Assembly (NCBI GenBank): GCA_035283065.1
Contig: DATEUP010000275.1
Location: forward strand, 1-58,852
DNA from: Thermoplasmatota archaeon
GTDB lineage: Archaea; Thermoplasmatota; DTKX01; DATEUP01
Reading direction: 5' to 3'
Length of the DNA stretch: 58,852 nt
Shown: piece after piece, positions 4,944-50,499 of the stretch
How positions within the stretch are numbered: position 1 is the first letter of the stretch
How the letters are laid out: every line of letters starts with the position of its first letter
The notes under the pieces: generated by a model
Databases searched by the model: none
Told to the model about the DNA's origin: nothing
Seen by the model: the letters and a program-made list of their open reading frames with translations, nothing else
Made by a program: the position numbers and the translations under genes

Positions 4944-5175
4944 CACCTTCACGTTCCTCCAGTCCGCCGACCCCGAACTCCTGCGCGCGCAACGCCGCGG
5001 CCTGCGCGAACTGCGGGTGCTGATCAAGTGCTACCTGTACGACATGCTCTCGGAGGACGCCCGCCCTATCCGCGTCGTCAGCGTCCGCCGGGTATTCGGT
5101 TCCGGCCCGATTCGCTTCTCCGTCACGGTGCGCGGCCCCGCCAAGGCGACGCGCCAACTCAAGGAGGTGCTCTGA
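4936..5175 (+). CDS. hypothetical protein (79 aa)
   Basis: GTG start overlaps the upstream stop (GTGGTTAA). Confidence 0.5.
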   Translation: MVNTFTFLQSADPELLRAQRRGLRELRVLIKCYLYDMLSEDARPIRVVSVRRVFGSGPIRFSVTVRGPAKATRQLKEVL

Positions 5176-5459
5176 TGGCCAAAGTTCAGGTGTACGCCTT
5201 CGACAAGGACGGGAAGATGCTCCACTGCGCGCCTCGGGAGATCCCCGCGCGGTTCGGCCCCGGCACCATCCGTCGGTGGGAACGCGAGTGGCGCAAGTGG
5301 GCGCTGAACGAGGTGCCGGCCGACTGCCCGACCGGGATCGCCGTTCGGACCCGCCGCCACGGTTCCTGGTTGGTCGAGTGGCCGGCCAGTCCGGTCTACT
5401 ACGCGGCCAAGGGGCATCCGATGCGCCCGGCCGCGCAGGAGGTGACCGATGCGCGTTGA
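5175..5459 (+). CDS. hypothetical protein (94 aa)
   Basis: AAGGAGG SD. The ATG shares one nt with the upstream TGA. Confidence 0.65.
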   Translation: MAKVQVYAFDKDGKMLHCAPREIPARFGPGTIRRWEREWRKWALNEVPADCPTGIAVRTRRHGSWLVEWPASPVYYAAKGHPMRPAAQEVTDAR

Positions 5460-5712
5460 ACGCCGGTGGAACATCGACCCGGACCCCGACGTCGAGTACC
5501 GCGTCCACTCGGACGGCTACGGGTTCACGACCCGGACGCCCTTCGGCTACACGGCCTATCGGATCGTGGCCCTGCGCCGCGCCTGGTACACGGGCGGGGA
5601 ACTCTACATCGTCAAGGAGCGTCACCAGCGCCACGGCGCGACCCGCCGCTTCTTCACGCCGGTTGCCGTGTGGGAGGACGTGATGGCCGAGGTGTTTGGA
5701 GCGGAGGTGTAG
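5449..5712 (+). CDS. hypothetical protein (87 aa)
   Basis: ATG overlaps the upstream gene by 11 nt. Confidence 0.55.
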   Translation: MRVERRWNIDPDPDVEYRVHSDGYGFTTRTPFGYTAYRIVALRRAWYTGGELYIVKERHQRHGATRRFFTPVAVWEDVMAEVFGAEV

Positions 5713-5713
5713 C

Positions 5714-5926
5714 ATGGGGAACGCGATCAAGTGCAGCGGGTGCGGTTCGGTCGAGGTTCTCTGCCCTGAGTCCCCCTCGCCGGCGCCGCGCTGCCCGGAC
5801 TGCGGGAAGCCCAGGAAGGCACGGTCGCCCATCGGCGTCGGCGCATGCGGACACGTTCGCTGCGACTGCTCCGATGGGGCCTTCTACGGGCGCGAGGAGG
5901 TGTCGGACGCCGACCCCGGTTTGTAG
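5714..5926 (+). CDS. zinc-ribbon protein (70 aa)
   Basis: GGAGGTG SD. Two Cys pairs: CSGCG ... CPDCG. Confidence 0.6.
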   Translation: MGNAIKCSGCGSVEVLCPESPSPAPRCPDCGKPRKARSPIGVGACGHVRCDCSDGAFYGREEVSDADPGL

Positions 5927-12371: not shown

Positions 12372-13181
12372 TCAACGATTTGCCGATGCTGACCTCAACA
12401 GTTTTTTTCCCGCCTCCCAACAATCGAGACAAGATCGTCTGCTGCCGACCTTCCTTCCCGCGCCCTTGGCAGGCTCAAAGAGCCTCCCGCAGGCTAGGCA
12501 GGAACACTGTTCGGTCTCGTGTTCCCATCCAAACCCGACGTACAAGCATGGATTCTCGTGCACGATTTCCCAATCCAAGGATCTGATCGAGTACCAACGA
12601 TCATCTACCCCTGTGACCTTCGCCAATGCGTCGCAAACAGCGTCAACAAAGTTGACGGCGTCGGTGTTCATGGATGGCTTTTGAACGAAGAGGTCGATCC
12701 ATATTTTGCCGGTGGGGGGCCTAGTCCCATTTAAGGATGACGAAATGGCAACTTCCAACCCGTCGCGTGCCAGCCTGTGGTTGTCGCGCATGTAGATGCG
12801 GTTGTGGTTGTTCGCGGCCCGCCCGTACATCCTGTTTTTCGAGAGGACCGGAAGAAAGGGGAAAGATACGCAGTGGTACGCGATCAAGTTCGGTCCCGGC
12901 CGCCTAAAAAACTTCATGGGCGAGGTTGTGGTGGTGAGGTTTTTCTGACGACCATACCCCTTGGCGGCGTCGTAGGCGTTCCTTCTCCACTCAGCGTTCC
13001 TTCGATCCATCCCCGGATCCTTTTTTCTTCTTCGGCGGGTTGCGGCCCTCCACAGGCGATAGTTTACTTCCGGCCTGCACACAGCACAGTACATGTGGTA
13101 GGGGCTTCGTCGCGGAGCCCTTTTACCGCACTCCATGCAGATGATCGTCTTGGAAGGGTTCTTGGCGTTCCACCAGGCCAT
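12372..13181 (-). CDS. RusA-like Holliday-junction resolvase with N-terminal zinc ribbon
   Basis: ATG 13181. N-terminal CMECG ... CAVC. The pattern LSKNRMYGR ... IWIDLFVQKPSMNTDAVNFVDAVCDALAKVTGVDDRWY follows the RusA D-x-x-N ... DAL ... DD layout. Confidence 0.6.
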   Translation of the reverse strand: MAWWNAKNPSKTIICMECGKRAPRRSPYHMYCAVCRPEVNYRLWRAATRRRRKKDPGMDRRNAEWRRNAYDAAKGYGRQKNLTTTTSPMKFFRRPGPNLIAYHCVSFPFLPVLSKNRMYGRAANNHNRIYMRDNHRLARDGLEVAISSSLNGTRPPTGKIWIDLFVQKPSMNTDAVNFVDAVCDALAKVTGVDDRWYSIRSLDWEIVHENPCLYVGFGWEHETEQCSCLACGRLFEPAKGAGRKVGSRRSCLDCWEAGKKLLRSASANR

Positions 13182-27694: not shown

Positions 27695-27725
27695 CCCGCG
27701 AAGCCTCGCCGTGCAAGCAGACGCT

Positions 27726-28511
27726 ATGGTTTGGACGTGGGGGGTCCACCCTCAGTACCGCCCGATGATGGAGGCCCACGCGCGCGCTTGGGCGGACGCC
27801 CTCGGCGCACATTACGGCGGGGAGGCAAGAAGGAACTCCCCCTTCCACCTGGCGAACCGCCACTTGATCGTGGGCGCCCTCGTCAACGAGGCCGTGATCC
27901 CGGCGCGGAACGTCACGGTGTGGTTTCCCGAGCAGCCGGCGCGCTCGCTCCCCACCGCGATGGGCATGGCGGCGCGGGGCGCCCGTGTCCTCACCTGCTA
28001 CCGAAACTATCCGGGCCAGCACGCCTTGATCTCCTTCTTCCCGGCCTACTACCACCCCACGTTCGAGGCACCGAGCAACGGAGCGCCCAAGACGCCGCTC
28101 TACTTCTGCGGCTGGCCCACCGAACGCCGGGAAGCACTGGTGGCGGATCTGGCGCAGGCCCCGTGGTTCCGGTGGGATCGAGAGGCCGTTCCCTATCCTC
28201 GCTACCTTCTGCAGGTCGCCCAGAGCAGGTGCGGGCTCGTGATGGGGTCGTGGGAGGAGCGGTTGTTCTACCCCGTTCGCATCGTGTGCGAACTTCTCGC
28301 CAACGGCGTCACGCCCCTCGTCGAACGCCGCTACATGGAGGGGGCCTACGAGGACCTCCTGCCCTACCTGGTTCCGTTCGACTCGGTGTCGGACCTTGAG
28401 GGCCTGGCGCACGACCCAGGAATCCATCGCATCGGGCGGGCCGGGCAGGCGCACGTCCGCAAAAACTACGATCTCCGGCACCTCGTCGAAACCTTGCATC
28501 CCCTCGCGTAA
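27726..28511 (+). CDS. putative glycosyltransferase (CgeB/GT1-like C-terminal domain)
   Basis: An alternative GTG exists at 27711. The C-terminal half resembles that of 46539-47531. Confidence 0.4.
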   Translation: MVWTWGVHPQYRPMMEAHARAWADALGAHYGGEARRNSPFHLANRHLIVGALVNEAVIPARNVTVWFPEQPARSLPTAMGMAARGARVLTCYRNYPGQHALISFFPAYYHPTFEAPSNGAPKTPLYFCGWPTERREALVADLAQAPWFRWDREAVPYPRYLLQVAQSRCGLVMGSWEERLFYPVRIVCELLANGVTPLVERRYMEGAYEDLLPYLVPFDSVSDLEGLAHDPGIHRIGRAGQAHVRKNYDLRHLVETLHPLA

Positions 28512-28529
28512 ATCGCTACGCTTGCCCCC

Positions 28530-29723
28530 GTGGCTCGCCTATGCGTCGACGTCCCAGACTTCCCGCCCGGCCCGGACATTCCCACAGAGCTTATCAAACG
28601 CATAGAAACGGAGGTCGCCCGAGAGGTGAACCTGCTCCAGCCGGGAGCCGGAACTGGTAAGTTCCAAACGAAGGTCGACGTCCAGGCCGACGGCACGATC
28701 ACCCTCGGCAACCTCCCGCCTGGTGCATTGGATGCATCGTTCGTGAGGTTCGCGCTGCTTGGCGCGAGGAAGGTGCATCGGGGACCGTTTACAATCGTCA
28801 TCTTGCGTAAAGCGGAAGAAGATCGCAGCGTAAGCGTCGTCCCAGAGGCGCCGAAGGGCATCCTCACAGCGGCATTCGTCCTGATCACCAGAATCGTCAA
28901 CCTCGGGCGCGGGGGCCTCAAAGCAGCGGCCGATGCGCTGGCCCTCGAGTTGACCCTGTTGGCGCGCGCCAACGGGGCCACGCCAGATGAAGAACTTCGG
29001 CTGGCCAACTCCCTCGCGATCGCGGCAAACCCAGCGGACGAAACCGAACGAACCGCAGCGACGATCGAGGCCGAGACCATCATCGACAACGTCGCTCGAA
29101 GGGCCGAAGCTCGGCAGGAGGCTGAAGATAAGCTCCGAGCAGAGGAGGGGGTTCGGGCACCAACCAATGGCGCGCCCACCGACGAACTCAGGGTCGAATT
29201 GTTTGAGCTCCAGGATCAGATCGAAGCCCTCGAGAAGGCGCAGACGGAACCCACTTTCTCCTCGAGCTTAGAGTTCATCCGGGGCCTCGATGCGCTAAGA
29301 AAGCGCGCCGCCGCACTTCGGGCAGAGCTTGAGGCAAGGCGCCCCGACATCAAATTCATCGATCTCCCGCCGGTCGAATTGGTGCCGGTCGCCGAGGTTC
29401 AGGCAGAGGCCGACCGCTTGCGCCGCGATATCGAGGCGGCCGAGTCGGCGCAGAACGATCCGAACTTCAGCGGGTCCCTCGAGTTCTACCGGGGGCTCCA
29501 GAAGATGCGGGATCGGCTGAGTTTCATCACCACTTCTGCCGTGATTACGCCCACCCCATCCCGTGCTGTGATGAACAGCTTCTTGGCCAGAGCATTTCTC
29601 AACGTCCTCAACCTGACACCTGACGTTCTTGTGGAGAAGGCGGCCCACGCCGCCCTCCGCGTGGCAGAGGGCTTGGGCCTGCCTCCGGGCGGCCTTCCCC
29701 CGGCTCGCCGAGCCGCCCGCTAA
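28530..29723 (+). CDS. tail-motif protein (397 aa) ending ...PPARRAAR
   Basis: GTG start. Contains an internal duplicated motif AQxxPxFSxSLEFxRGL. Confidence 0.7.
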   Translation: MARLCVDVPDFPPGPDIPTELIKRIETEVAREVNLLQPGAGTGKFQTKVDVQADGTITLGNLPPGALDASFVRFALLGARKVHRGPFTIVILRKAEEDRSVSVVPEAPKGILTAAFVLITRIVNLGRGGLKAAADALALELTLLARANGATPDEELRLANSLAIAANPADETERTAATIEAETIIDNVARRAEARQEAEDKLRAEEGVRAPTNGAPTDELRVELFELQDQIEALEKAQTEPTFSSSLEFIRGLDALRKRAAALRAELEARRPDIKFIDLPPVELVPVAEVQAEADRLRRDIEAAESAQNDPNFSGSLEFYRGLQKMRDRLSFITTSAVITPTPSRAVMNSFLARAFLNVLNLTPDVLVEKAAHAALRVAEGLGLPPGGLPPARRAAR

Positions 29724-29761
29724 GCGTTGAACGAGACGCCGTCTCGTGTATACTCGGGGCC

Positions 29762-32700
29762 GTGGCCCAACCGCTTCCGCCGCTTTCGGCCATCATTCCG
29801 GCCGAGGCGCAGACGCCCGCCCTTGACGTTGCATTCGCCGCCGGTAACGTCTCCCTCGGCCGGTTGATCCGGGAGGACGGCGAGCGGGTCGACGAGGCCA
29901 TCACCACCTCGACGGAACTCTTGCAGGCCGCCCGCCTCGGCATCGAGGCCCTCTTCAACACCGGCCGGCAGGTCACGGTCGACCACATGGCCGGGTTGTG
30001 GTGGGGTCTTCGCCTGTTTGCTCGACTCCTTCAGACAGACCGCAAGGTGCCCGCTTCTGTGCTCGAAACGGCCAACTCGGAGGGTGCCGCAGGCGGCCTC
30101 TTCCTGCGCCGGCTGACAGCGGGACCTGCCGAATTCGCGGGCGCCCCCGTGCGCCTCTTCGAGCGGGTCGCTGCGGCGGATCAAGCCGGCGCTCTCGCCT
30201 TCGTCGACCACCTTGGGACCGTTCTAGCCGGGGAGCCTACCGTCTCGGACGGGGCGGTAGAGATCGCGGCGCTTCCCCCGCAGGACCCGGATGCCCTTGC
30301 CCAACTGATCAAGTCCGACGAGAGGTTCAATTACTTCCAGATCCGCGACGGGGTTGGACGCGCGGCCGACACCAGAGACATCACGGTCGAGCTGGTACGC
30401 AACCTCGACGGAACCTTCGCGCCGTCCTCGAGCGTTCCGCAGTTCATCTTTGTGCGGCTGGGGTTCGCGCGGAACCCCGACTCCCTGGAGGTGATGCGCG
30501 ATCTGCTCTTCGCCTCCCTGGACTCGAAGGCGCGGGAGGTCACCGGCAAGCTCAAGGAGGTGGTGGACCGTATCCGCGCGGCCAAGGACACGCGAGAAGA
30601 CGCGGCCCTCACCAACCTCAAGCGCGACCCCAAGGCCCGCCAGCGGCTGATCATTGCGATCCGCCGCGCCCGGGACGCCCAGGCGATCCCGGCTCTCACC
30701 GCAGCGCTCGAAGACAAGGACCCGCAGGTGAGGGCCGCGGCGGCCGACGCCCTCAAGCGCCTCGACGCCAAGGAAGCCATCCCCGCACTTGAGAAATCGC
30801 TCACGGACAAGGACATGGCCGTTCGCGAGCAGGCGGCGCTCGCGCTGGCCTTCCTCGGCGCCGGCGCCGCGGCCCTGATCAAGGCGTTCAAGGGGTCGAA
30901 GGGGCGGGGAAAGGCAGCGATCATAGAGGCGCAGGGGGTGCTTTTCTTCCAGGCCACCGACGATGAGAAGAAGTCCATCCTCGCCAACATCGAATCGGCC
31001 ACCAAGGACAAGGAACCCGAGGTGCGAATCGGCGCGCTCTTGGCGGCCCGGGCCACCGAGGACCCGACGCTGACCATCGACCTGGCCCGTCGCGCCCTGG
31101 CCGACAAGGACGAGGCGGTGCAAGCGGCGGCCATCGATGTGCTTCGGGATTTGGCGGTTCGCCTGCCGGAGAACACCAAGGAGGTGTCCTCCATCCTCAA
31201 GGGGGCTATCAGTGATCTTGCGAAAAACCCGGTGCTGCAGGAACGGGCGCAAGACGCCGTGGAAGGGTTCAACGACGATCCGGGAGAACGGGTAGGAACC
31301 TCCGTCAACGGCGTCCGAAACGTCGGGGCCTTCGTTCTCGCCTTCGACGTGTCGGGTAGCACCCTATCGGACCCGGACGACGTCGAGCGCGGGAAGACCA
31401 AGGCCGAGGCCGGGTTCAAGCAGATGAAGGACCTGATCAACTCCCTCAAGCCCAACCAGCGATTCAACATCATCCTCGCCTCGACCGTGGCCTTCGACGA
31501 GGGCATCGCCATCTTCAAGTCGCGTAGGCTTTCCGCCCGCGACATCGCCCTGCTTGAGGCAGAGGGACGCCTGGTGCCCGGAACGCTCGTTGCCGGCGAC
31601 CTGGTCCCCGAGTCGGTTCTCGCCACCGACCAGAACAAGGCCGCCGCCATCGCGTTCCTCGACCGTTCGCTGGCCTTTCTCACAAGCGACGCCAACCGCT
31701 CCTCGCGCGGCTTCTTCAAGGGGCGATACAACCTCTTCGATTCGATCATCCGCGCCTTCGCCGACCGCACGATCAACAAGCTCTGGTTGGGCGGGGACTT
31801 CAGGCCCACGGCGGGATCTTTGACGGACTCCAACACGATCCTCGACGCCATCGAGGGTTTCGTCAAGTACACCCGCGTGCGGATCGACACGGTTGTCTTC
31901 GGCAGCAGCGGGGTCGACCGCAACCTGGCGACGGACCTGGCCACTTCTTCGCGCGGTCGGGTGGTGGAGCGGTCGGCGCAGAAGATGTTTCCCGACGTCC
32001 TGCCCGGCCCGGTCTTCTTCGCCGACCCCGTCGACATGGAGCAGGACATCCTTCAGCAGGGCTTCAGGGTCTACGAGGACACCGGTAGGCTCCGGGCCAG
32101 TTCCGCGATGGCCGAGCGGATGGAGCGGTCGGCCGACTCGATTGCGGCGACCGCCTCGGTCACAGAGGGCGTTCGCTTCAAGAGCAACCTTCAACTACAA
32201 GCCGCTCAGCTCCGGGCAACGGCCGCAGAACTGCGGGTGGTTGCGGATCGTGAACTCGTGAGGGCGTCCGATTCGTCGGTTCGCCTGTCTGATATCGGGG
32301 AAGACGTGCTTCGCCGGTTGAGGGATCGAGGCGCATCGGAGGAGGCGGTCAAGTCGGTAGAGGAAGCCCTCACAAGTTATCGCCTCATCCTAAGACGCGA
32401 GGGCGAACTCGTCGGCAATGCGCGCCAGATAGAAGCGTTCTCCTTCGCTCGATTTGACTTTACGCTTTTCCCCCAGATGTCCGGGCGCATCGAAGGGTCT
32501 CGCAGGCGGGTCGAGGAATCCTCTTCGCGCATTGCGTTGATCATCACGGCGGCCGAGCAGTCGATCCAGACGGAAAACTCCGGCCTGCTCCAAAGCCAAC
32601 TTGCCGCCATACGGATGGCATCCTCCGAGAGCAGTCAAAGGGCGATGGTGATGTCCCAGGATGAGGGCACGGCATTTGCGCGGTTCGCCGTACGCCTCGA

Positions 32701-32857
32701 TGAGAAGATCGCTTCGACGAGATCGTTGTGGGACATCCTCGCTCGCCCCGCCCGCCCCGGCATCGAAGAGGTGACCGAGCAGGTAGGCCGCGCCCTTCGT
32801 CAGGTGAGGCCGAGAGACGGCTTCCCGTTGAGAAGAGCCGCCCCACGTGCCCCATGA
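29762..32857 (+). CDS. tail-motif protein (1031 aa) with HEAT repeats and a vWA-like domain, ending ...LRRAAPRAP
   Basis: HEAT_PBS-like repeats: AIPALTAALEDKDPQVRAAAADALKRL and AIPALEKSLTDKDMAVREQAALAL. MIDAS-like FVLAFDVSGS. Confidence 0.75.
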   Translation: MAQPLPPLSAIIPAEAQTPALDVAFAAGNVSLGRLIREDGERVDEAITTSTELLQAARLGIEALFNTGRQVTVDHMAGLWWGLRLFARLLQTDRKVPASVLETANSEGAAGGLFLRRLTAGPAEFAGAPVRLFERVAAADQAGALAFVDHLGTVLAGEPTVSDGAVEIAALPPQDPDALAQLIKSDERFNYFQIRDGVGRAADTRDITVELVRNLDGTFAPSSSVPQFIFVRLGFARNPDSLEVMRDLLFASLDSKAREVTGKLKEVVDRIRAAKDTREDAALTNLKRDPKARQRLIIAIRRARDAQAIPALTAALEDKDPQVRAAAADALKRLDAKEAIPALEKSLTDKDMAVREQAALALAFLGAGAAALIKAFKGSKGRGKAAIIEAQGVLFFQATDDEKKSILANIESATKDKEPEVRIGALLAARATEDPTLTIDLARRALADKDEAVQAAAIDVLRDLAVRLPENTKEVSSILKGAISDLAKNPVLQERAQDAVEGFNDDPGERVGTSVNGVRNVGAFVLAFDVSGSTLSDPDDVERGKTKAEAGFKQMKDLINSLKPNQRFNIILASTVAFDEGIAIFKSRRLSARDIALLEAEGRLVPGTLVAGDLVPESVLATDQNKAAAIAFLDRSLAFLTSDANRSSRGFFKGRYNLFDSIIRAFADRTINKLWLGGDFRPTAGSLTDSNTILDAIEGFVKYTRVRIDTVVFGSSGVDRNLATDLATSSRGRVVERSAQKMFPDVLPGPVFFADPVDMEQDILQQGFRVYEDTGRLRASSAMAERMERSADSIAATASVTEGVRFKSNLQLQAAQLRATAAELRVVADRELVRASDSSVRLSDIGEDVLRRLRDRGASEEAVKSVEEALTSYRLILRREGELVGNARQIEAFSFARFDFTLFPQMSGRIEGSRRRVEESSSRIALIITAAEQSIQTENSGLLQSQLAAIRMASSESSQRAMVMSQDEGTAFARFAVRLDEKIASTRSLWDILARPARPGIEEVTEQVGRALRQVRPRDGFPLRRAAPRAP

Positions 32858-32896
32858 AATGCTTGAATCCGGTCCTGTTTTGGGTAAGGTGAGGTC

Positions 32897-33226
32897 ATGA
32901 ACTTCATCGGTGTACGCAACGAGGTCATCTTCTACTGCATGGTGTGGGAGAGCCGCGCCGAGCCGACGACCGGCTCGTTCGTGGAAATCCTGCGGGAGCA
33001 GTTCGCCCGCATCGCGCAGGAAGCGAAGATGGCGGTCGCCGAGGTCATCCAGTTCTGCCCGCCGAAGCTGCGCGACATCCTCCTCGGGCCTCCCGTGCCC
33101 CCGGTGACCCCGCCGGTCTCCCCGGTCTTCGCCGAGATCATCGTGATCGGCGAGCCCGAGGAACCGCCGATGTTCCCCGAGCGGGCACCGAACCCGGCCG
33201 GCCCGGGCCCCGTGACCCCGACCTAG
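32897..33226 (+). CDS. small protein (109 aa) ending ...RAPNPAGPGPVTPT
   Basis: AAGGTGAGG SD. Pro-rich C-terminal half. Confidence 0.6.
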   Translation: MNFIGVRNEVIFYCMVWESRAEPTTGSFVEILREQFARIAQEAKMAVAEVIQFCPPKLRDILLGPPVPPVTPPVSPVFAEIIVIGEPEEPPMFPERAPNPAGPGPVTPT

Positions 33227-33373
33227 TTCGGGGCCACGCGCGCGCGCACGGGTAGGGGCAGAGCGGAGGTCCTTTTCCCTCTCCATGGGAGGGGGGCCCC
33301 CCCCTACCCCCCCTGTCCGGGCATCTGATTTACGTCGGCCCTTCTATAAAGAGTCGGGTGCAACTTCACCGAT

Positions 33374-33411
33374 GATGCAGGTAGCATTCTCCTTGCATCG
33401 GATGCAGGTAG
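33374..33411. promoter_or_regulatory. GATGCA(GGTAG) repeat array upstream of the RHH gene
   Basis: GATGCAGGTAG at 33374 and 33401 (direct repeat). TGCATC at 33394 (inverted). Confidence 0.5.
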
Positions 33412-33429
33412 ACGTACACTGGCATCATC

Positions 33430-33648
33430 GTGGCACGCAGCCAGGACGACTACTTCGACCAGAAAATTCCCCTCAACGTGCGCGTCGACCGCAAGATCCA
33501 CGGCCAGATCAGGCAGGTCGCCACGCGCGAGGGGCGTTCCACGTCGGACGTGGTTCGGGAGGCCCTCGCCCGCTTCTTGATGAACTGGAACCACGCCGCC
33601 AGGGGCGCGGAGGTCGCCCCCACCGTCACCCCAAGGCAAGCCGGCTGA
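33430..33648 (+). CDS. ribbon-helix-helix (CopG/Arc-like) transcriptional regulator
   Basis: The pattern IPLNVRVDRKIHGQIRQVATREGRSTSDVVREALARFL follows the RHH layout. Confidence 0.7.
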   Translation: MARSQDDYFDQKIPLNVRVDRKIHGQIRQVATREGRSTSDVVREALARFLMNWNHAARGAEVAPTVTPRQAG

Positions 33649-33986
33649 TGCTTCCCTGCCCGAAGTGCTCGAGCGACGAACGGGTAGAGGTTGTCGGCCA
33701 AGGGCCGCAGCAGGTGGAGATCCGGGCGATGGACGAGAGGGGGAACCCCACCGAGGTCTTCCGCCACCCGAGGATGATGTACGAGTGCGTCGGCTGCAAC
33801 GTCACCCTCATCGAGAACAGAATCGCCGGGACGCTCGAGCCGGTCTCGGACGAGAAGGGCAAGCCCGTGCCGACCCGCGCCGACGAGGAGGCGCGGCAGG
33901 CCAAGATCATCGCAGACGACCGCAAGCGCATCTACGACCCGCGGGCCAGCGGACGAATGCGCATGACCCCGCGCCGCAGCGTCTAG
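33648..33986 (+). CDS. zinc-ribbon protein (112 aa)
   Basis: The ATG shares one nt with the upstream TGA. Cys pairs CPKC ... CVGC. Confidence 0.6.
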   Translation: MLPCPKCSSDERVEVVGQGPQQVEIRAMDERGNPTEVFRHPRMMYECVGCNVTLIENRIAGTLEPVSDEKGKPVPTRADEEARQAKIIADDRKRIYDPRASGRMRMTPRRSV

Positions 33987-34009
33987 CGCGCGGCTACCCC
34001 AAAAAGGAA

Positions 34010-34031
34010 GCCCCCGGCTTGCGCCGGGGGC
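34010..34031 (-). terminator. rho-independent terminator (9-bp GC stem, TTGC loop; U-tract on minus strand)
   Basis: GCCCCCGGC-TTGC-GCCGGGGGC is preceded by AAAAA on the plus strand. Lies between convergent genes. Confidence 0.7.
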
Positions 34032-34056
34032 CGGCTGTCTCCCAGGTTGGCGTCCG

Positions 34057-34806
34057 TTACGGCGCCGTGTGCTTCAGCGTGACGACCTTGTTCAGGTCGG
34101 GCAGCACGGCGATGTTGACGAACGTGGCCGGCGGCGGCAGCGCGACGGCCGCATCGACCATCTTGGTGATCAGATCGTCGAGTTTGGCGTTCGCGTCCGT
34201 GACGCTGAACCCCTTGTCGACGGCGACCCCAAGCTGGACCAGCAACTGGACGATGTTCGACCGCAACACACTTCGCATCAGAAGCGAGGTGATGTTGGTC
34301 GGGAGGAGGCCATCGATCTGGTAAGAACCGCGGGTGTACTTCACTCCGCGGCGGTCGCCTGTCATGGCCGACGCCGCGTAGGGTCCCGGTCCTCGTTCTC
34401 CCAGAGCGGAGGTGCTGGTCATCTCGAGCGTGAACGCCACGCGCGAGAGCCAGTTGTTCGCCTTCTCGTCGACCTTCCGCTTGAACTCGTCTCCGTCGTT
34501 GGCGAAGACGTTGTCGTGGGCCTGCTTGGCGCCGACTTCCGAAGCCTCCATGTTGAATTCCATGAAGCGCTTGATGAAGTCCGCGCTACGGCCGCGCCGC
34601 GACACGAAAGCGGGGTTGACGAAAGGCCCGAAAGCGATGGCCGCTTCCTTTGCCAGAGCCGTCCAGTTCGCCGTCGCCAAATCCCACCGCTGCTTCATGA
34701 TGCTCGCCGCGTTCTTCAGGTTCTCCGTGAACCGCGTGAAGATTTGCGTCGGCACCACGTTCACCGGCGTGACCGGGAGGGTCGCCTCGAGGATGACCGT
34801 GGGCAT
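34057..34806 (-). CDS. monocistronic 249-aa protein, candidate abundant structural protein
   Basis: Only gene in the window with its own promoter-like region, a GGGAG SD and a canonical terminator. No recognisable family. Confidence 0.7.
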   Translation of the reverse strand: MPTVILEATLPVTPVNVVPTQIFTRFTENLKNAASIMKQRWDLATANWTALAKEAAIAFGPFVNPAFVSRRGRSADFIKRFMEFNMEASEVGAKQAHDNVFANDGDEFKRKVDEKANNWLSRVAFTLEMTSTSALGERGPGPYAASAMTGDRRGVKYTRGSYQIDGLLPTNITSLLMRSVLRSNIVQLLVQLGVAVDKGFSVTDANAKLDDLITKMVDAAVALPPPATFVNIAVLPDLNKVVTLKHTAP

Positions 34807-34839
34807 CCGAGGACTCCCTAAATGGTGACGCTAAACAAA

Positions 34840-34856
34840 GGCTGGACCGTCCAGCC
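34840..34856. promoter_or_regulatory. 17-bp perfect palindrome GGCTGGACCGTCCAGCC
   Basis: Read directly. Lies between ATG 34806 (minus) and ATG 34881 (plus). Confidence 0.5.
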
Positions 34857-34865
34857 TCCGAGGGC

Positions 34866-34872
34866 TATAGTA
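34866..34872. promoter_or_regulatory. overlapping opposite-strand -10 hexamers (TATAGT plus strand, TACTAT minus strand)
   Basis: Plus strand: TGGACC-N17-TATAGT. Minus strand: TTGCAT-N17-TACTAT. Confidence 0.4.
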
Positions 34873-34880
34873 CGCAGGGT

Positions 34881-35165
34881 ATGGACCGCATGCAAGGGTT
34901 TTGGTGTTTTCGCGGCGCAACCGCTTGGCGGCTAAGGCGTTGCTGGTACGCCATCGTACCTCTGGCGTTTTTCGCACTGATGGCCGCCTGCTCCGGTCTC
35001 CAGCTTGAACGAGCCGGCGATGCGGCGGGCACGGCCGCCGAGGTGGCAGGAACCGCCGGGGCCGTTACAGGAAACCCCCTCTTCCTGGGCGCCGCAATCG
35101 CTTTGGGGGCGATCAGCGCGGGCCTGACGGGGGTTGGTCGCCTCATGCGCTCGAGGGGGAAGTAG
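34881..35165 (+). CDS. putative lipoprotein (94 aa)
   Basis: Basic n-region RLRR, hydrophobic core, lipobox-like ALMAAC, C-terminal hydrophobic segment. Confidence 0.5.
   Translation: MDRMQGFWCFRGATAWRLRRCWYAIVPLAFFALMAACSGLQLERAGDAAGTAAEVAGTAGAVTGNPLFLGAAIALGAISAGLTGVGRLMRSRGK
34945..34960. promoter_or_regulatory. operator-like palindrome GGTACGCCATCGTACC
   Basis: Perfect GGTACG-N4-CGTACC. Lies inside the 5' part of the lipoprotein ORF. Confidence 0.55.
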
Positions 35166-35512
35166 TGGACGTCCCGCAGGAAGTCCTCGCCGACCACTCC
35201 CTCGGGGTCCACACCAGCGCCGCGTTCGTGGTCATCTTCCTGGTGATGGGGATAAAGAAGATGATCCCCGAGTCGTGGAACCGCGCGCTGCCCCTGTTCG
35301 TGGTGATGATCTCGTTCGCCTACGCCTTCCTGTTCCACTACTTCAACAAGACGCAGGAGTTGGTGAACCCGATGCTCCTGGGATCGCAGATCGCCGCCGC
35401 CGCCATCTCCATCTTCTCCGGTGCCAAGACCGTCTTTGCGATGAGGTCGGATCAGAAACCCGCGGCCGCGGAACCGCCGGCTCCCCCGCCGCTTCCGCCC
35501 CCGCCTGCTTAG
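35165..35512 (+). CDS. three-TM small membrane protein (holin-like)
   Basis: The GTG shares a nt with the upstream TAG. Hydrophobic segments AAFVVIFLVMGI, LPLFVVMISFAYAFLF and GSQIAAAAISIF. Confidence 0.5.
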   Translation: MDVPQEVLADHSLGVHTSAAFVVIFLVMGIKKMIPESWNRALPLFVVMISFAYAFLFHYFNKTQELVNPMLLGSQIAAAAISIFSGAKTVFAMRSDQKPAAAEPPAPPPLPPPPA

Positions 35513-35522
35513 GAGGCACGCC

Positions 35523-35675
35523 ATGGCAAGCGCCGAGGAAGTCTTCGCCCGCCAGAACGAGATCAATCGCGACAGCCGCACGTTCACGTCGGTGCGCCCG
35601 GACGGCCCGGACCAGCGGCGCTCGGAGCGCCGGCCCAACCCAGCGGCGCCCGGCCCGGTGACGCCGACGTCCTAG
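35523..35675 (+). CDS. small protein (50 aa, below track cutoff) ending ...RRPNPAAPGPVTPTS
   Basis: AGGAGG SD 6 nt upstream. Hand-translated as MASAEEVFARQNEINRDSRTFTSVRPDGPDQRRSERRPNPAAPGPVTPTS. Confidence 0.55.
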   Translation: MASAEEVFARQNEINRDSRTFTSVRPDGPDQRRSERRPNPAAPGPVTPTS

Positions 35676-35699
35676 CTGGCGACGCGAGAGGATACGCTT

Positions 35700-36509
35700 T
35701 TGGGCATCGGAGACAGAACCGAGTTGATCTTCCTTCGCCTTGCGTTCGCGCAGGACGGAACCGGCATCGACCCGCGCCAGCTCCCGCCCAAGCAAGCCTT
35801 CGGCGAGAAACCGAAGGGGAGGGACCGACCGTTCAAGGTGTACGAGGATACGTTCACCGCGCAGGCGAAGAAACTCGCCGATGAACTGTCCATGGAGAAG
35901 GACCAGAAAGCGCGCACGCGCAACAACGGGTTTCGTATGCGCTCGCTGGTTCGCAAGATCGACGACGCCACGGCAGAGGTCAACTCCCTCGCCGCCTCGG
36001 GGCCGGTGCCCCCGGCCAAGGTGGCCCAGATGTGGATGGCCCTCAACCTCTTCGCCCGCACCATCGGCAATCCGAAGACGGGAGGGGGCGGGGCGATCGA
36101 CGTCAACGCCTCGGACTTTGCGTCCGCGACCAGTTCCTATGACGCGGCGGTGCGCGCCCTCAACGCCGGCTTCAAGTCCCTCGGCACGGACCAGAAGACG
36201 CGCGTGGAGACGTTTAGTCTTGCGTTGGTCCGCGAGTTCGAGACAATAGCCACGGAGGTCTTGGACAGAGAAGTCGTGCGAACCATCGAAGAACAGATCG
36301 AGGTGCTGACCGACGAGGTCAAGGCCCGCCCGCGTCCCGTTCGCGCGCCGCGCGAGGAACGGCGGACGGGTCCGGTTGTGCCCCCGCCGTCTCCCCTGCC
36401 CGACGAACCAGTGCCCCTACCCGAGACGCCGCCTCCTCCCGAAGAGGAGCCGCCGCCCATCCCGCCGCCCCCCATCCCCCAACTGGAGCCCGCGCCGGCG
36501 GCACGCTGA
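35700..36509 (+). CDS. hypothetical protein (269 aa), Pro-rich C-terminus ending ...EPAPAAR
   Basis: TTG start per the track. Weak match to the tail motif. Confidence 0.55.
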   Translation: MGIGDRTELIFLRLAFAQDGTGIDPRQLPPKQAFGEKPKGRDRPFKVYEDTFTAQAKKLADELSMEKDQKARTRNNGFRMRSLVRKIDDATAEVNSLAASGPVPPAKVAQMWMALNLFARTIGNPKTGGGGAIDVNASDFASATSSYDAAVRALNAGFKSLGTDQKTRVETFSLALVREFETIATEVLDREVVRTIEEQIEVLTDEVKARPRPVRAPREERRTGPVVPPPSPLPDEPVPLPETPPPPEEEPPPIPPPPIPQLEPAPAAR

Positions 36510-45157: not shown

Positions 45158-45532
45158 CTATTTGAAGTCGAAGGACACGCTGACGAAGCGGATGGACCCC
45201 ACCCCCGCGCCCGTGGTGTCGCTCTCGATGGTCACCTTCTTGGCATTGGCAACCGCAAGCACATCCGCGACGAAGAAGGCCCCGGTGAATGCAGAGGGGA
45301 TGGTGTGCGTGAGGGCCGTGTCGATCCCGTCCAACCTGAACGTCAGAACGGTCGGTCCGTCGAGGGTGTTCAGACCCACGGTCCCCCGCACGTTCTGGAT
45401 CAAGCCCGGCCTGGTGGAAAGGTACTCCACGATTGACTCGGATGTGGCGGGGAGGGCACCCGGAGAGAGGCCGACGTTCAGATACCTCACCTGCCCTGAT
45501 GCCTGAGACCCCTCAAAACCCTGGATGATCAT
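45158..45532 (-). CDS. beta-rich protein with NTLDG module (124 aa)
   Basis: GGAGGAGG SD before MIIQGF. Module IQNVRGTVGLNTLDGPTVLTFRLDG ... IPSAFTG. Confidence 0.6.
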   Translation of the reverse strand: MIIQGFEGSQASGQVRYLNVGLSPGALPATSESIVEYLSTRPGLIQNVRGTVGLNTLDGPTVLTFRLDGIDTALTHTIPSAFTGAFFVADVLAVANAKKVTIESDTTGAGVGSIRFVSVSFDFK

Positions 45533-45686
45533 CTCAGCCTCCTCCGCTCCCGCCCCTTGCGGGTTTGGACGACGTGCGATTTTCGCCACCATTACAGGTA
45601 TCCCCTTAGCATCTCAACATAGTGATGATACCACAGGTGGCGTTCAATGGAAAGCGTCCGATGGCGGGCCGCTATCAGCGCCGGAC

Positions 45687-46535
45687 TCATCCGATCTCGT
45701 AGCTGACCACGAGCCGAATCGCTCCGGTGGTTCCGCCGGTGGCAGCCTCCACGCTTACGTCCTGGCCGTCCCCGACGCTGGCCGTAGCCGCAATGTCCAC
45801 GTCCGTAGTGTCCCCGGCGGGGATCACGGCCGTGATTGCCGTGGCAACCCCCGCGACCCGAATGGTGACCGTGGTTGATCCGTCGAGTGTGTTGCTCGGG
45901 ATGCTGATCCGGATCCGGCTGATTGTGGAGTTCCGGGTGGCGCGGTAGGATGCCAGGTTCTCGGTGACCGCCGTGGAGGGCACATTGCCGGAAAACAGGT
46001 ACGCCGTGGTCGCGGCCGGCAGTCCTGCGGTGGGCCCGTTGCCGTGGATCATCATCGTTCCGCCCGGCGTCGCAGGCGAGAACACGTAGGCGACCAGCAT
46101 CGGTAGGCCGGCAGGCGGGTTCTCGACCCGGACGGGCCCTGCGCCCCCTCCGAGCTGGACCTGAACGATGTAAGTTCGGTCTTCCGCGCCGAGCTTGTCG
46201 ATGCGTTGGAAGTTGACGTGGGAGATCGAAGCGAACCCGCCCTCGGTGACGTCCTGGCGGATGATCCCGCCGAGGGGGAGGTTAGGGTTGCCCGATGGCA
46301 CCTGATGGACCATCTGGAGCGTCGCCGTGCTTCCGGCCGCCCCCGCCGAGAGCTGGCCGTCGAAGAAGAGCCAGATGAACGAACCCGCCGGCACGCCCGT
46401 GATGTCGAGTTGGACGACGTCGACGAACACCGCGAACTCGGCCGTGACGGGTGCGTTCTGGAGCGACGCCTGAAACTGCTTGAAGAACGTGACGCTTCCG
46501 GCGCCGGGGACCGGGGGTTGGGGGAGGTTCGTCAC
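45687..46535 (-). CDS. beta-rich protein (282 aa), C-terminal NTLDG module
   Basis: Module ISRIRISIPSNTLDGSTTVTIRVAG ... IPAGDTT. Confidence 0.65.
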   Translation of the reverse strand: MTNLPQPPVPGAGSVTFFKQFQASLQNAPVTAEFAVFVDVVQLDITGVPAGSFIWLFFDGQLSAGAAGSTATLQMVHQVPSGNPNLPLGGIIRQDVTEGGFASISHVNFQRIDKLGAEDRTYIVQVQLGGGAGPVRVENPPAGLPMLVAYVFSPATPGGTMMIHGNGPTAGLPAATTAYLFSGNVPSTAVTENLASYRATRNSTISRIRISIPSNTLDGSTTVTIRVAGVATAITAVIPAGDTTDVDIAATASVGDGQDVSVEAATGGTTGAIRLVVSYEIG

Positions 46536-47557: not shown

Positions 47558-48073
47558 ATGACCAGCGCCGAAGAGGTGTTCAGGGGCTTGGCCTTGCAAG
47601 GGCGGATTCCCGTCCCCCGCCTTCAGAGGCGACCGGCTCCGGTCCTTGTTTCTCCCGTGGAGGATGAAGCCATGATCTCCGATTTTTCCAATTCGTCCGG
47701 GTTCGTGGTGCCCGGACCTGCGGGAACGCAGGTCACAAAGTCCGCGACGTTTTCGCTGGCCACCGCCGTCCGGCTGTTCGAGGTGCTCGCCGGCTTCAAG
47801 ACCGGCATGGGTGCGATCGTCAAAGTTGTGGACGTGCTGATCGACGGGTCGAGCATGGGCTTTGGAAGCGAACCCACGTCCGCCTCCGATGTGGCGATTG
47901 GCGCGTTCGAGAACTTGGCGCAACGCCAGGCGACCACGCTATCGGCGGGATCTCATACGATGGCGGTGGTGTACGAGAACGCCGATAGGGACAACCTCGA
48001 TCAGACGGTCCTAGCCGGTGAGGCTCTGGCTCGGCTCATTACCGCAGCCGGCGTCAGCTCGTCGCTGGCGTGA
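47558..48073 (+). CDS. beta-rich hypothetical protein (171 aa; alternative SD-led ATG at 47672)
   Basis: N-terminus MTSAEEVF mirrors MASAEEVF of 35523-35675. Confidence 0.55.
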   Translation: MTSAEEVFRGLALQGRIPVPRLQRRPAPVLVSPVEDEAMISDFSNSSGFVVPGPAGTQVTKSATFSLATAVRLFEVLAGFKTGMGAIVKVVDVLIDGSSMGFGSEPTSASDVAIGAFENLAQRQATTLSAGSHTMAVVYENADRDNLDQTVLAGEALARLITAAGVSSSLA

Positions 48074-48618: not shown

Positions 48619-48891
48619 GTGGTCGACGGCCAGACCGTTCAACTCAGGGTCGACCTTGGCTTCAGAAAGACGCTCGAGGCCGTTTTCAAACTCGACCGAA
48701 TGAAGGTCGTGACAGACACAGAACCCAAGGCGTCCGCGGCGCGGGCGCAACTCGAGGCGTGGATCAAGGGCCGTCAGGTCATCGTACAAAGCGCCAATCT
48801 CCCAGGCTACCCGGTCGAGATGTGGTTGCCCGGCGATCCTGTCAGCGTCAACGAGAAGATGATCGCGGCCCGGCAGGCCGTTCGCGCATGA
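48619..48891 (+). CDS. hypothetical protein, SNase/OB-like N-terminus
   Basis: VVDGQTVQLRVDLGF. The in-frame upstream codons (YIYNARVLE) contain no canonical start. Confidence 0.35.
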   Translation: MVDGQTVQLRVDLGFRKTLEAVFKLDRMKVVTDTEPKASAARAQLEAWIKGRQVIVQSANLPGYPVEMWLPGDPVSVNEKMIAARQAVRA

Positions 48892-48907
48892 CCAGCAGCG
48901 AAATCGT

Positions 48908-49153
48908 TTGATCCCCACAGGGTTGACGGGCACTATCCGGTATATGCGCCTCTGGATAGATGGAGGTGTTGCGTTCTTCTTCTCTGCGGAGAAGTCCAGT
49001 ACGATGCCGGGGGATCGCTTTTCCGTGAACCTCGCGGCGGCCCCTCAAGGAATCTCGTTCGTGGGTGCGGATTTTACGGTAGACGATACCAACGTCGGCT
49101 TCAATTTAGTGGGCACGACCTACCACTGGCTCGCTTTCTCGACGAGTCCGTAG
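48908..49153 (+). CDS. hypothetical protein (81 aa; likelier SD-led start at ATG 49004)
   Basis: TTG start per the track. The 5' 90 nt are low-GC. Confidence 0.35.
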   Translation: MIPTGLTGTIRYMRLWIDGGVAFFFSAEKSSTMPGDRFSVNLAAAPQGISFVGADFTVDDTNVGFNLVGTTYHWLAFSTSP

Positions 49154-49895: not shown

Positions 49896-50145
49896 GGTGG
49901 TCGCCACGGCGCGGCGCCTTCGTTCGTCTGCCACGGCCGGAGTATACGGGGGCGGGCGGGGCCGTTCAAGGATCAGGCGAGTCCGTTGCACGCGGCGCCG
50001 CTTTCGCCTATACTCGCCGTCTGGTGTGCCGGATGCCGAAACGGTTTTCGCCCGATTCGTCCGGGACCACAAGCAAAGCCTGGTGGTGCCGCTTCGGCGG
50101 CGACCTCCTCCGGTTTCGGCGTTCGTACCTCCGGGGGACCTAGAG

Positions 50146-50499
50146 GTGCAGCACGCGTTCAACCTCAACGGGCCGCTGGTCGTAGGCGACGACATCGACG
50201 GCCGCCACAACTGGGGATTCACCGGCACGGAGAACTTCGTGGTGTTCCGCCGCGAGAACGCGGGCGCCGGGGGAACCACCACGCTTGAACTTCGTCGGGG
50301 CGGTGTCGCCATCGCCTCGGCCACGTTCACGCCGGCGGAAGGGGCCAACGTCCAGAAGACGGTGGCGCTTGCCGGCGCGTTCATCGCGACGACGCAGTAC
50401 AGCTTCCACGTTACCACGGTCGAGACGGCAAGCGGGATCGGGGTCAACCAGCTCCCCGCAGACGCCTCGGCCGCACTCGACGTGACGAGGACTGCCTGA
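50146..50499 (+). CDS. beta-rich protein (117 aa)
   Basis: GTG start inside the 242-aa track ORF. Sequence TTTLELRRGGVAIASATFTPAEG resembles the module family. Confidence 0.5.
   Translation: MQHAFNLNGPLVVGDDIDGRHNWGFTGTENFVVFRRENAGAGGTTTLELRRGGVAIASATFTPAEGANVQKTVALAGAFIATTQYSFHVTTVETASGIGVNQLPADASAALDVTRTA

Follow-up and report, generated by a model that had tools for sequence, protein, structure and literature searches.

A short proline-rich peptide shared by unrelated small proteins and N-terminal leaders of a 58.8-kb virus-like genome

Two small genes ending in a common peptide

Contig DATEUP010000275.1 (GenBank assembly GCA_035283065.1), which was analysed over its whole length of 58,852 nucleotides and is called the window in the following, is a virus-like genome of about 58.8 kb without terminal repeat. 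It contains two small genes, P0001 and P0002, whose products end in nearly the same proline-rich peptide, RRPNPAAPGPVTPTS, with the consensus R-[RA]-P-N-P-A-x-P-G-P-V-T-P-[TS] over 12-15 residues. The contig is binned with an archaeal genome (2.76 Mb in 302 contigs, 83.5% complete). Comparisons were made with a related genome, hereafter the sister genome (Logan SRR22388270 contig 12408, 58,790 bp), whose proteins are 51-85% identical to those of the window. The features of the two genes are the following, with peptides taken from translation:

32897..33226, + strand: P0001, 109 residues, ending in ERAPNPAGPGPVTPT (longer form FPERAPNPAGPGPVTPT) directly before the stop codon
Within P0001: an N-terminal helical domain of 63 residues, then a disordered proline-rich half up to the tail
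33179..33223, + strand: first copy of the tail, ERAPNPAGPGPVTPT, residues E95-T109 of P0001
35523..35675, + strand: P0002, 50 residues, starting MASAEEVFARQ and ending in ERRPNPAAPGPVTPTS (longer form SERRPNPAAPGPVTPTS) directly before the stop codon; its sister orthologue is P0005
35625..35672, + strand: second copy of the tail, ERRPNPAAPGPVTPTS, residues E35-S50 of P0002

P0001 is the final gene of an operon (27711-33226), after a HEAT-repeat gene of 1031 residues, and P0002 is flanked by two small membrane-protein genes on one side and by a run of four giant genes on the other. A Shine-Dalgarno (SD) sequence, AAGGTGAGG, lies upstream of P0001 at 32886-32894 and ends 2 nt ahead of the ATG; P0002 is preceded by AGGAGG at 35511-35516, 6 nt ahead of its ATG, and this SD is kept in the sister lineage. 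The GC content at third codon positions is 0.94 in P0001 and 0.92 in P0002, and the P0002 frame is called by gene finders in every independent assembly examined (at least 7). The sister genome keeps both genes with their SD sites, and their tails read ERAPNPAGPGPVTPS and QRRPNPAGPGPVTPTS up to the stop codon. Because of the strong SD sequences, the third-position composition and the conservation of both tails, both frames are by all computational criteria real genes, and P0002 bears every such mark of a translated gene. An earlier reading of this DNA, made from its letters only (the sequence-only reading), had described both frames and both tails as they are found here; its reservation that the 50-residue frame might not be translated is countered by the SD, the codon composition, the gene calls and the selected tail.

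A model of P0001 made with AlphaFold2 (AF2) comprises a four-helix head (residues 1-63, predicted local distance difference test, pLDDT, 80-87) and a disordered stretch formed by the C-terminal 46 residues (pLDDT below 55 for residues 70-109). The motif is located in this predicted disordered proline-rich sequence, outside the folded head, as is typical of linear motifs. Compared with PDB and BFVD by Foldseek, the model had no match under E=0.7, and Pfam and PHROGs searches with P0001 and P0002, with the genes next to them and with the beta-rich proteins described below were uninformative.

The two tails are identical in 13 of 15 aligned residues, and 8 of these 13 use different codons; the proportion of synonymous differences (pS, Nei-Gojobori) is 0.71 over the 15 codons against a non-synonymous proportion (pN) of 0.10, or 0.04 in the 12-codon core. 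The bodies of P0001 and P0002 are unrelated to each other, and so is the DNA 3' of the two stop codons. When each tail is compared with its orthologue, that of P0001 has synonymous changes in six of 13 codons and one non-synonymous change, and that of P0002 has eight synonymous changes and one non-synonymous change in 15 codons, versus five and 19, respectively, in the preceding 35 codons, so that selection in P0002 is on the tail. The P0001 orthologue is 74% identical overall and keeps the tail, residues 54-108 being almost invariant between the lineages, and an exchange of T and S is tolerated at the final tail residue. This pattern argues that selection acts on the peptide rather than on the DNA, which bears out what the sequence-only reading had proposed, together with its observation that the upstream parts of the two proteins are unrelated.

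A similarity without function, produced by chance, by low-complexity composition or by a recent DNA duplication, might be expected in a GC-rich genome whose proteins are rich in Pro, Ala and Gly and often contain proline-rich segments, but this explanation is refuted and can be given almost no weight. In fact, the peptide is kept although synonymous sites are saturated and the flanking DNA is unrelated, so that recent duplication or gene conversion is ruled out, including a duplication reaching beyond the coding ends, which had been named as a possible objection. Moreover, both copies persist in a lineage whose proteins differ by 15-49%, and a bin-wide control, in which the C-termini of 30,208 stop-to-stop frames were compared, gave seven pairs with at least 11 of 12 residues and at most 31 of 36 bases identical, among which the P0001/P0002 pair is the only one on a single contig and with orthologue support.

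A six-frame search of the window and of the whole bin found no further full copy of the motif, and scans with the back-translated motif had 0 matches in viral and genome contig collections. The single match in a metagenome collection was outside any open reading frame and was rejected as chance. Homologues of P0001 form only two clusters among 5.8 billion proteins.

Two further observations concern the DNA of P0001. The 54 nt at 33117-33170, encoding PVFAEIIVIGEPEEPPM, are the longest exact nucleotide match of the window with the sister genome, taken from about 20 kb compared, in which the DNA is about 73-78% identical; they hold a palindrome, GATCATCGTGATC, with two GATC (Dam) sites, and may be an element acting at the DNA or RNA level beyond the coding constraint. 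A G/C-rich inverted repeat (GGGTAGGGG...CCCCTACCC, about 33251-33311), which was spotted by eye and not flagged by the scan, follows P0001 and may be a terminator.

The motif within N-terminal leaders of beta-rich proteins

A scan of the sister genome found a third copy of the motif, RRPNPAQDGPVTPT, which is internal to the frame L020:19509-20030 (P0048, 173 residues); this protein starts (V)TSAEEVFRRLAGARGLPVRIW-RRPNPAQDGPVTPT-GPPEEEA-MIFDF. Its window orthologue and two other beta-rich proteins of the window have comparable starts:

47558..48073, + strand: P0047, 171 residues, orthologue of P0048; leader MTSAEEVFRGLALQGRIPVPRLQRRPAPVLVSPVEDEA at 47558-47671, then a beta-rich body
50026..50499, + strand: P0049, 157 residues, GTG start; leader VPDAETVFARFVRDHKQSLVVPLRRRPPPVSAFVPPGD (VPDAETVFARFVRDHKQSLVVPLRRRPPPV...), then a beta-rich body
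45158..45592, - strand: a beta-rich protein of 144 residues with a short leader, MVAKIARRPNPQGAGAEEAE-M; the sister gene has a short leader too

The leader has the form M-[AT]-S-x-E-E-V-F...RRPxP(...GPVTPT) over roughly 40 residues, and M1, E5, V7, R-R-P and a later P are invariant in an alignment of seven leaders. In P0047, which starts MTSAEEVFRGLALQGRIPVPRLQ-RRPAPVLVSPV-EDEA-MISDF, the motif is degenerate, and it is reduced to RRPxP in this protein, in P0049, in the 144-residue protein and in sister proteins of 142 (leader MTSEERVFKDLSAAPGLPVRRLQRRPAGVPVPPEEDD-M), 112 and 151 residues. Between P0047 and P0048 the first nine codons have five synonymous changes and no non-synonymous one, which indicates that the leader is translated. 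The sister leader of P0049, (GTG)ASDEAVLAAFVRDRKRDLPVPLRRRPVPEAVLPP, is identical in 17 of 29 residues, 11 of which use different codons. These alignments indicate that the motif, previously seen as a C-terminal tail, is also part of an N-terminal leader module. P0002 and P0048 match by BLASTP (E=3e-6) on the motif alone, and their first eight residues are also common; since motif and N-terminus are both found in P0002 and in P0047/P0048, P0002 is, on this comparison, a stand-alone paralogue of the leader.

As a consequence, one part of the sequence-only reading stands and another does not. Selection on the peptide and the unrelated bodies are retained, but the proposed system of C-terminal tails tied to the giant proteins with RxAAxR ends is not supported, because the motif belongs to a larger N-terminal leader and is internal in a sister protein; beyond gene neighbourhood, no link was found between the motif of P0001/P0002 and the RxAAxR proteins. 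The roles that the same reading had suggested for the two small proteins, as adaptors, chaperones or substrates, are candidates only. These large helical proteins, encoded between 1781 and 44726, end in tails such as PPARRAARS, LRRAAPRAP and FLRRRAARG. The two tails are alike in that both are terminal peptides common to dissimilar proteins of one genome; the RxAAxR tail differs in its large, Cys-free helical carriers, in being always C-terminal and in having no GPVTPT part. In forms such as RGAPRP and RAAPRAP there is a loose likeness to ER-A-P-N-P, with which the motif starts, and this likeness may be compositional.

The bodies that follow the leaders are paralogous beta-rich domains (BLASTP 8e-16 and 8e-4), the first value being that between the 144-residue protein and the C-terminal domain of the protein at 45687-46535. 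They are only 28-35% identical between the lineages, versus 51-85% for other genes. Leader N-termini that stay unchanged through synonymous changes while the bodies diverge form a pattern that, by analogy with viral fibres and spikes, would be a conserved anchor on a fast-evolving body, and the beta-rich proteins look like surface or receptor-binding modules.

The junction between leader and body has a further feature. In five of the seven leader-bearing genes examined in the two lineages the leader ends in GGAGGA or GAGGAGG, 5-9 nt before an in-frame ATG, so that the acidic stretch of the peptide doubles as an internal ribosome-binding site; in P0047 the sequence is GGAGGA with the ATG at 47672, between leader and body, and in the 144-residue gene it is GGAGGAGG with the ATG at 45532, after the short leader. 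Of the five long leaders (AEEVF-type), four have starts without SD, and the same four starts are located 9-18 nt 3' of a TATACT, TAAAAT, TAAATT or TATCCT hexamer. Labelled long and unlabelled short isoforms are thus plausible, and the in-frame SD and ATG right after the leader suggest that both are probably made. Nested in-frame two-start genes are known from phages; lambda C/Nu3 and the holins S107/S105 are examples. As in those genes, an internal in-frame SD and ATG would give long and short proteins; the difference is that the predicted long form would here add an addressing leader.

Two loci bear on the history of the leaders. At 48888-49153 the window counterpart of the sister 142-residue gene has no leader: MTSSEIV followed by a stop is found at 48888-48911 and the body (MRLWIDGG...) runs on in a different frame, which indicates that leaders are gained and lost between lineages. 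At 35673-35702 (12783-12812 in the sister sequence L001), P0002 and a gene of 269 residues starting with TTG at 35700 are in the same frame, a weak observation given its prior of 1/3; read-through of the TAG would recreate a leader-plus-body protein.

Candidate roles of the peptide

The reading that we favour, to which we assign a probability of roughly 45%, is that the motif is a portable short linear docking peptide by which several proteins would attach to a single partner; the most plausible partner would be an element-encoded component of the virion or of its assembly. It is favoured because the motif is selected as a peptide, is placed in disordered sequence at either end of unrelated bodies, and is coupled to variable surface-like domains. 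Unrelated proteins would attach to one site by means of this common label: P0001 would be a small adaptor. P0002 consists of hardly anything except the label and a short helix at its N-terminus, and would serve as the free label that fills the docking site, competes for it or caps it. The third setting is that of the fast-evolving beta-rich proteins, with the motif, complete or degenerate, within their N-terminal leader. What is observed is the motif with its selection and conservation, the homology of the leaders and the arrangement of start sites; that the peptide binds, what it binds, that two isoforms exist and what P0002 does are inferred from these. The feature appears to be a device of a known kind in a form particular to its lineage.

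Several points weigh against a docking role. No docking partner was identified, and Pfam and PHROGs scans of about 40 window frames recognised no capsid, portal, terminase or protease family, so that the virion itself is putative. The motif of P0047 has decayed to RRPAPVLVSPV; therefore the full motif is dispensable in at least one context. Across all collections searched the motif occurs in only two lineages. Finally, its invariant Thr/Ser-Pro end and the presence of at least five glycosyltransferase genes would fit a modification site equally well.

According to this modification hypothesis, which we consider the less likely by a clear distance, the tail would be an acceptor for element-encoded enzymes and the shared peptide their recognition site; an O-glycan on the Thr/Ser at the end of PGPVTPT(S) would be the likeliest modification, and phosphorylation at T-P is also possible because a dual-specificity phosphatase gene is present. 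Pro-flanked Thr is a common context of O-glycosylation, and the tolerated T/S exchange is compatible with it. The element encodes GT9 (heptosyltransferase-like), GT2 and two or three Glyco_trans_1_2 proteins, one glycosyltransferase gene lies between two leader-bearing beta-protein genes, and there are sugar-type methyltransferases (TylF, in the sister genome), the DSPc phosphatase and a weak Maf_flag10_N match. On the other hand, 12-15 invariant residues, among them N, G and four P, are seldom required of a simple acceptor, and leaders from which the Thr residues have disappeared (P0047, P0049) still have the RRPxP core; the glycosyltransferases could act on DNA or on host glycans instead, and none is linked here to a protein substrate. 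A precedent is offered by the mycobacteriophages Che8, Corndog and Myrna, whose virion proteins are glycosylated by phage-encoded glycosyltransferases (PMC12363180; also PMC12582341). The major capsid and major tail proteins of Che8 (5051-5872 and 7613-8422 of L006), which are reported to carry glycans, both end in GS, as NKTGS and YSDGS. Freeman et al. (2023) reportedly located glycans at the C-termini of capsid and tail-tube subunits. The likeness consists in the element-encoded glycosyltransferases (GT9, GT2, Glyco_trans_1_2), whereas the common Che8 end is of two residues against an invariant motif of 12-15 residues here, and the carriers are not recognisable capsid or tail proteins.

It is also conceivable, but improbable, that the motif is the boundary of a propeptide or linker, the leaders being cut by a protease or bypassed by internal initiation, and that P0002 is a leftover leader split by a stop from the 269-residue gene at 35700, and would do little by itself unless the two are rejoined by TAG read-through. 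Each leader is in fact followed by an acidic stretch and then by a Met at the start of the conserved body, P0002 is in frame with the next gene in both lineages (one TAG and eight sense codons between them), and the leaderless window orthologue of the sister 142-residue gene, with its MTSSEIV remnant, indicates that leaders can be shed. Yet the frame agreement has a prior of one in three and the two lineages are not independent, TAG is an ordinary stop in the long genes of the element, and no protease gene was recognised in the scans. P0001 carries the same tail with nothing downstream but the possible terminator, and the P0002 tail is under strong purifying selection in both lineages while the rest drifts, which argues that the free 50-residue product works through its tail. 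More doubtful still is a binding of the peptide to a host protein, as a hijacking motif that would recruit or block a host factor. Viruses commonly engage host domains through short disordered proline-rich motifs, and no viral partner is identified; against this, the 83.5%-complete archaeal bin contains no similar peptide and thus no sign of mimicry, the archaeon of the bin is itself no more than a candidate host, and a module anchoring several variable beta-rich proteins fits assembly better.

For the docking peptide, known systems provide analogies, not membership, as the features that define them were not found here. Encapsulin targeting peptides are found at either terminus of cargo proteins and bind non-covalently to one shell pocket (PMC8229669); alike are the short conserved peptide on a flexible Pro/Gly-rich linker and its occurrence at one end or the other of proteins that are not related. 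The motif has no relation in sequence to known targeting peptides such as GGDLGIRK and TVFSLIQ, its binding is putative, and the scans of about 40 window frames revealed no encapsulin or HK97-fold shell gene. The adenovirus fibre binds the penton base by an N-terminal FNPVYPY tail (PMC8156859), that is, by a proline-rich N-terminal peptide that anchors a variable receptor-binding protein, comparable to the leader at the head of bodies 28-35% identical between lineages; the sequences differ, no penton base was identified, and the motif is here also C-terminal on two small proteins.

Three other readings were rejected on sequence. A precursor of ribosomally synthesised and post-translationally modified peptides (RiPP) does not agree with the same motif on proteins of 109 and 173 residues, nor with the neighbours of P0002, which are membrane proteins and giant helical proteins, without RiPP enzyme family. 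Sorting signals of the LPXTG, PEP-CTERM or PGF-CTERM type are excluded since the proteins stop 0-1 residue past the motif, with no hydrophobic segment, and a twin-arginine translocation (Tat) signal peptide since RRPxP is followed by Pro-rich and acidic residues and not by a hydrophobic stretch. A T4-type capsid targeting sequence or prohead-protease propeptide, which would be removed by a virus-encoded maturation protease, was considered as well; no protease family was found in scans in which most frames match no family.

A wider and speculative scheme, which we regard as improbable, is that two address labels build a particle without recognisable capsid, portal or terminase: RxAAxR on the large helical proteins, and the MxSxEEVF...RRPNPAxPGPVTPT leader on small and beta-rich surface proteins. 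In each beta-protein gene, translation of the long form would begin at a 5' start codon that is leaderless or lacks an SD, 9-18 nt past a -10/TATA-like hexamer, and that of the short form at an internal SD-led ATG, and P0002 would control stoichiometry by setting the occupancy of the docking site.

Shared terminal peptides are one of the few handles for sorting the proteins of this element into functional groups. If the motif indeed acts as a docking label, the hub on which an otherwise opaque particle assembles could be fished out directly with a synthetic peptide, and the leader would define which proteins the particle displays, while long and short isoforms, together with a label-only protein, would be an unusual control of the copy number of anchored surface proteins; if the tail is a glycosylation site instead, virion glycosylation would be extended beyond actinobacteriophages. 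The present evidence amounts to a well-supported sequence feature in two known lineages, to which a function is attributed by inference.

The element and the neighbours of the tail genes

Independent groundwater (Rifle-type) assemblies, among them those of the Rifle aquifer samples SRR1658462 and ANAN16, contain this genome as contigs of 58,596-58,988 bp with differing start points, which indicates that the genome is complete and circular or circularly permuted. The bin is archaeal, as ribosomal protein S28e is present; no CRISPR or other tie between bin and contig was found, so that this archaeon is at most a candidate host. Window genes encode an SNF2 helicase (best matches in Thermus and Arthrobacter phages), an SbcC-like ATPase, a DnaD-like protein, at least four DNA methylases, at least five glycosyltransferases, methyltransferases and a DSPc phosphatase, to which the sister genome adds Rad52, RusA, DUF5131, Phage_zn_bind_8, TylF and the weak Maf_flag10_N match.

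The two small membrane-protein genes just upstream of P0002 occupy 34881-35512. One product, of 94 residues, combines a lipoprotein signal, whose lipobox is LMAAC in the window and ISAC in the sister genome, with a C-terminal transmembrane helix; in the other, of 115 residues, there are three hydrophobic helices, and this protein weakly matches a PHROG holin (E=0.006). Between P0001 and these genes lies the most conserved gene between the lineages:

34057..34806, - strand: gene of 249 residues, 84% identical between lineages

Its product has about 33 distant relatives (25-38% identity, 250-270 residues) among 1.8 billion representatives. It has no Pfam, PHROG or PDB match, a profile of 30 relatives found no PDB or PHROG family, and a search with this profile found nothing in viral and genome collections or in 11 other genomes of the class of the bin. 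The protein is predicted to be all-alpha, with an AF2 pLDDT of 36, too low to use. Contigs of the distant relatives showed no comparable tails; three of them are small, of low GC (39-42%) and full of short frames, and at least one relative adjoins a called ribbon-helix-helix gene. In the window, a ribbon-helix-helix gene is found at 33430-33648, and upstream of it the direct repeat GATGCAGGTAG occurs twice, at 33374-33384 and 33401-33411, which is probably the operator of this gene.

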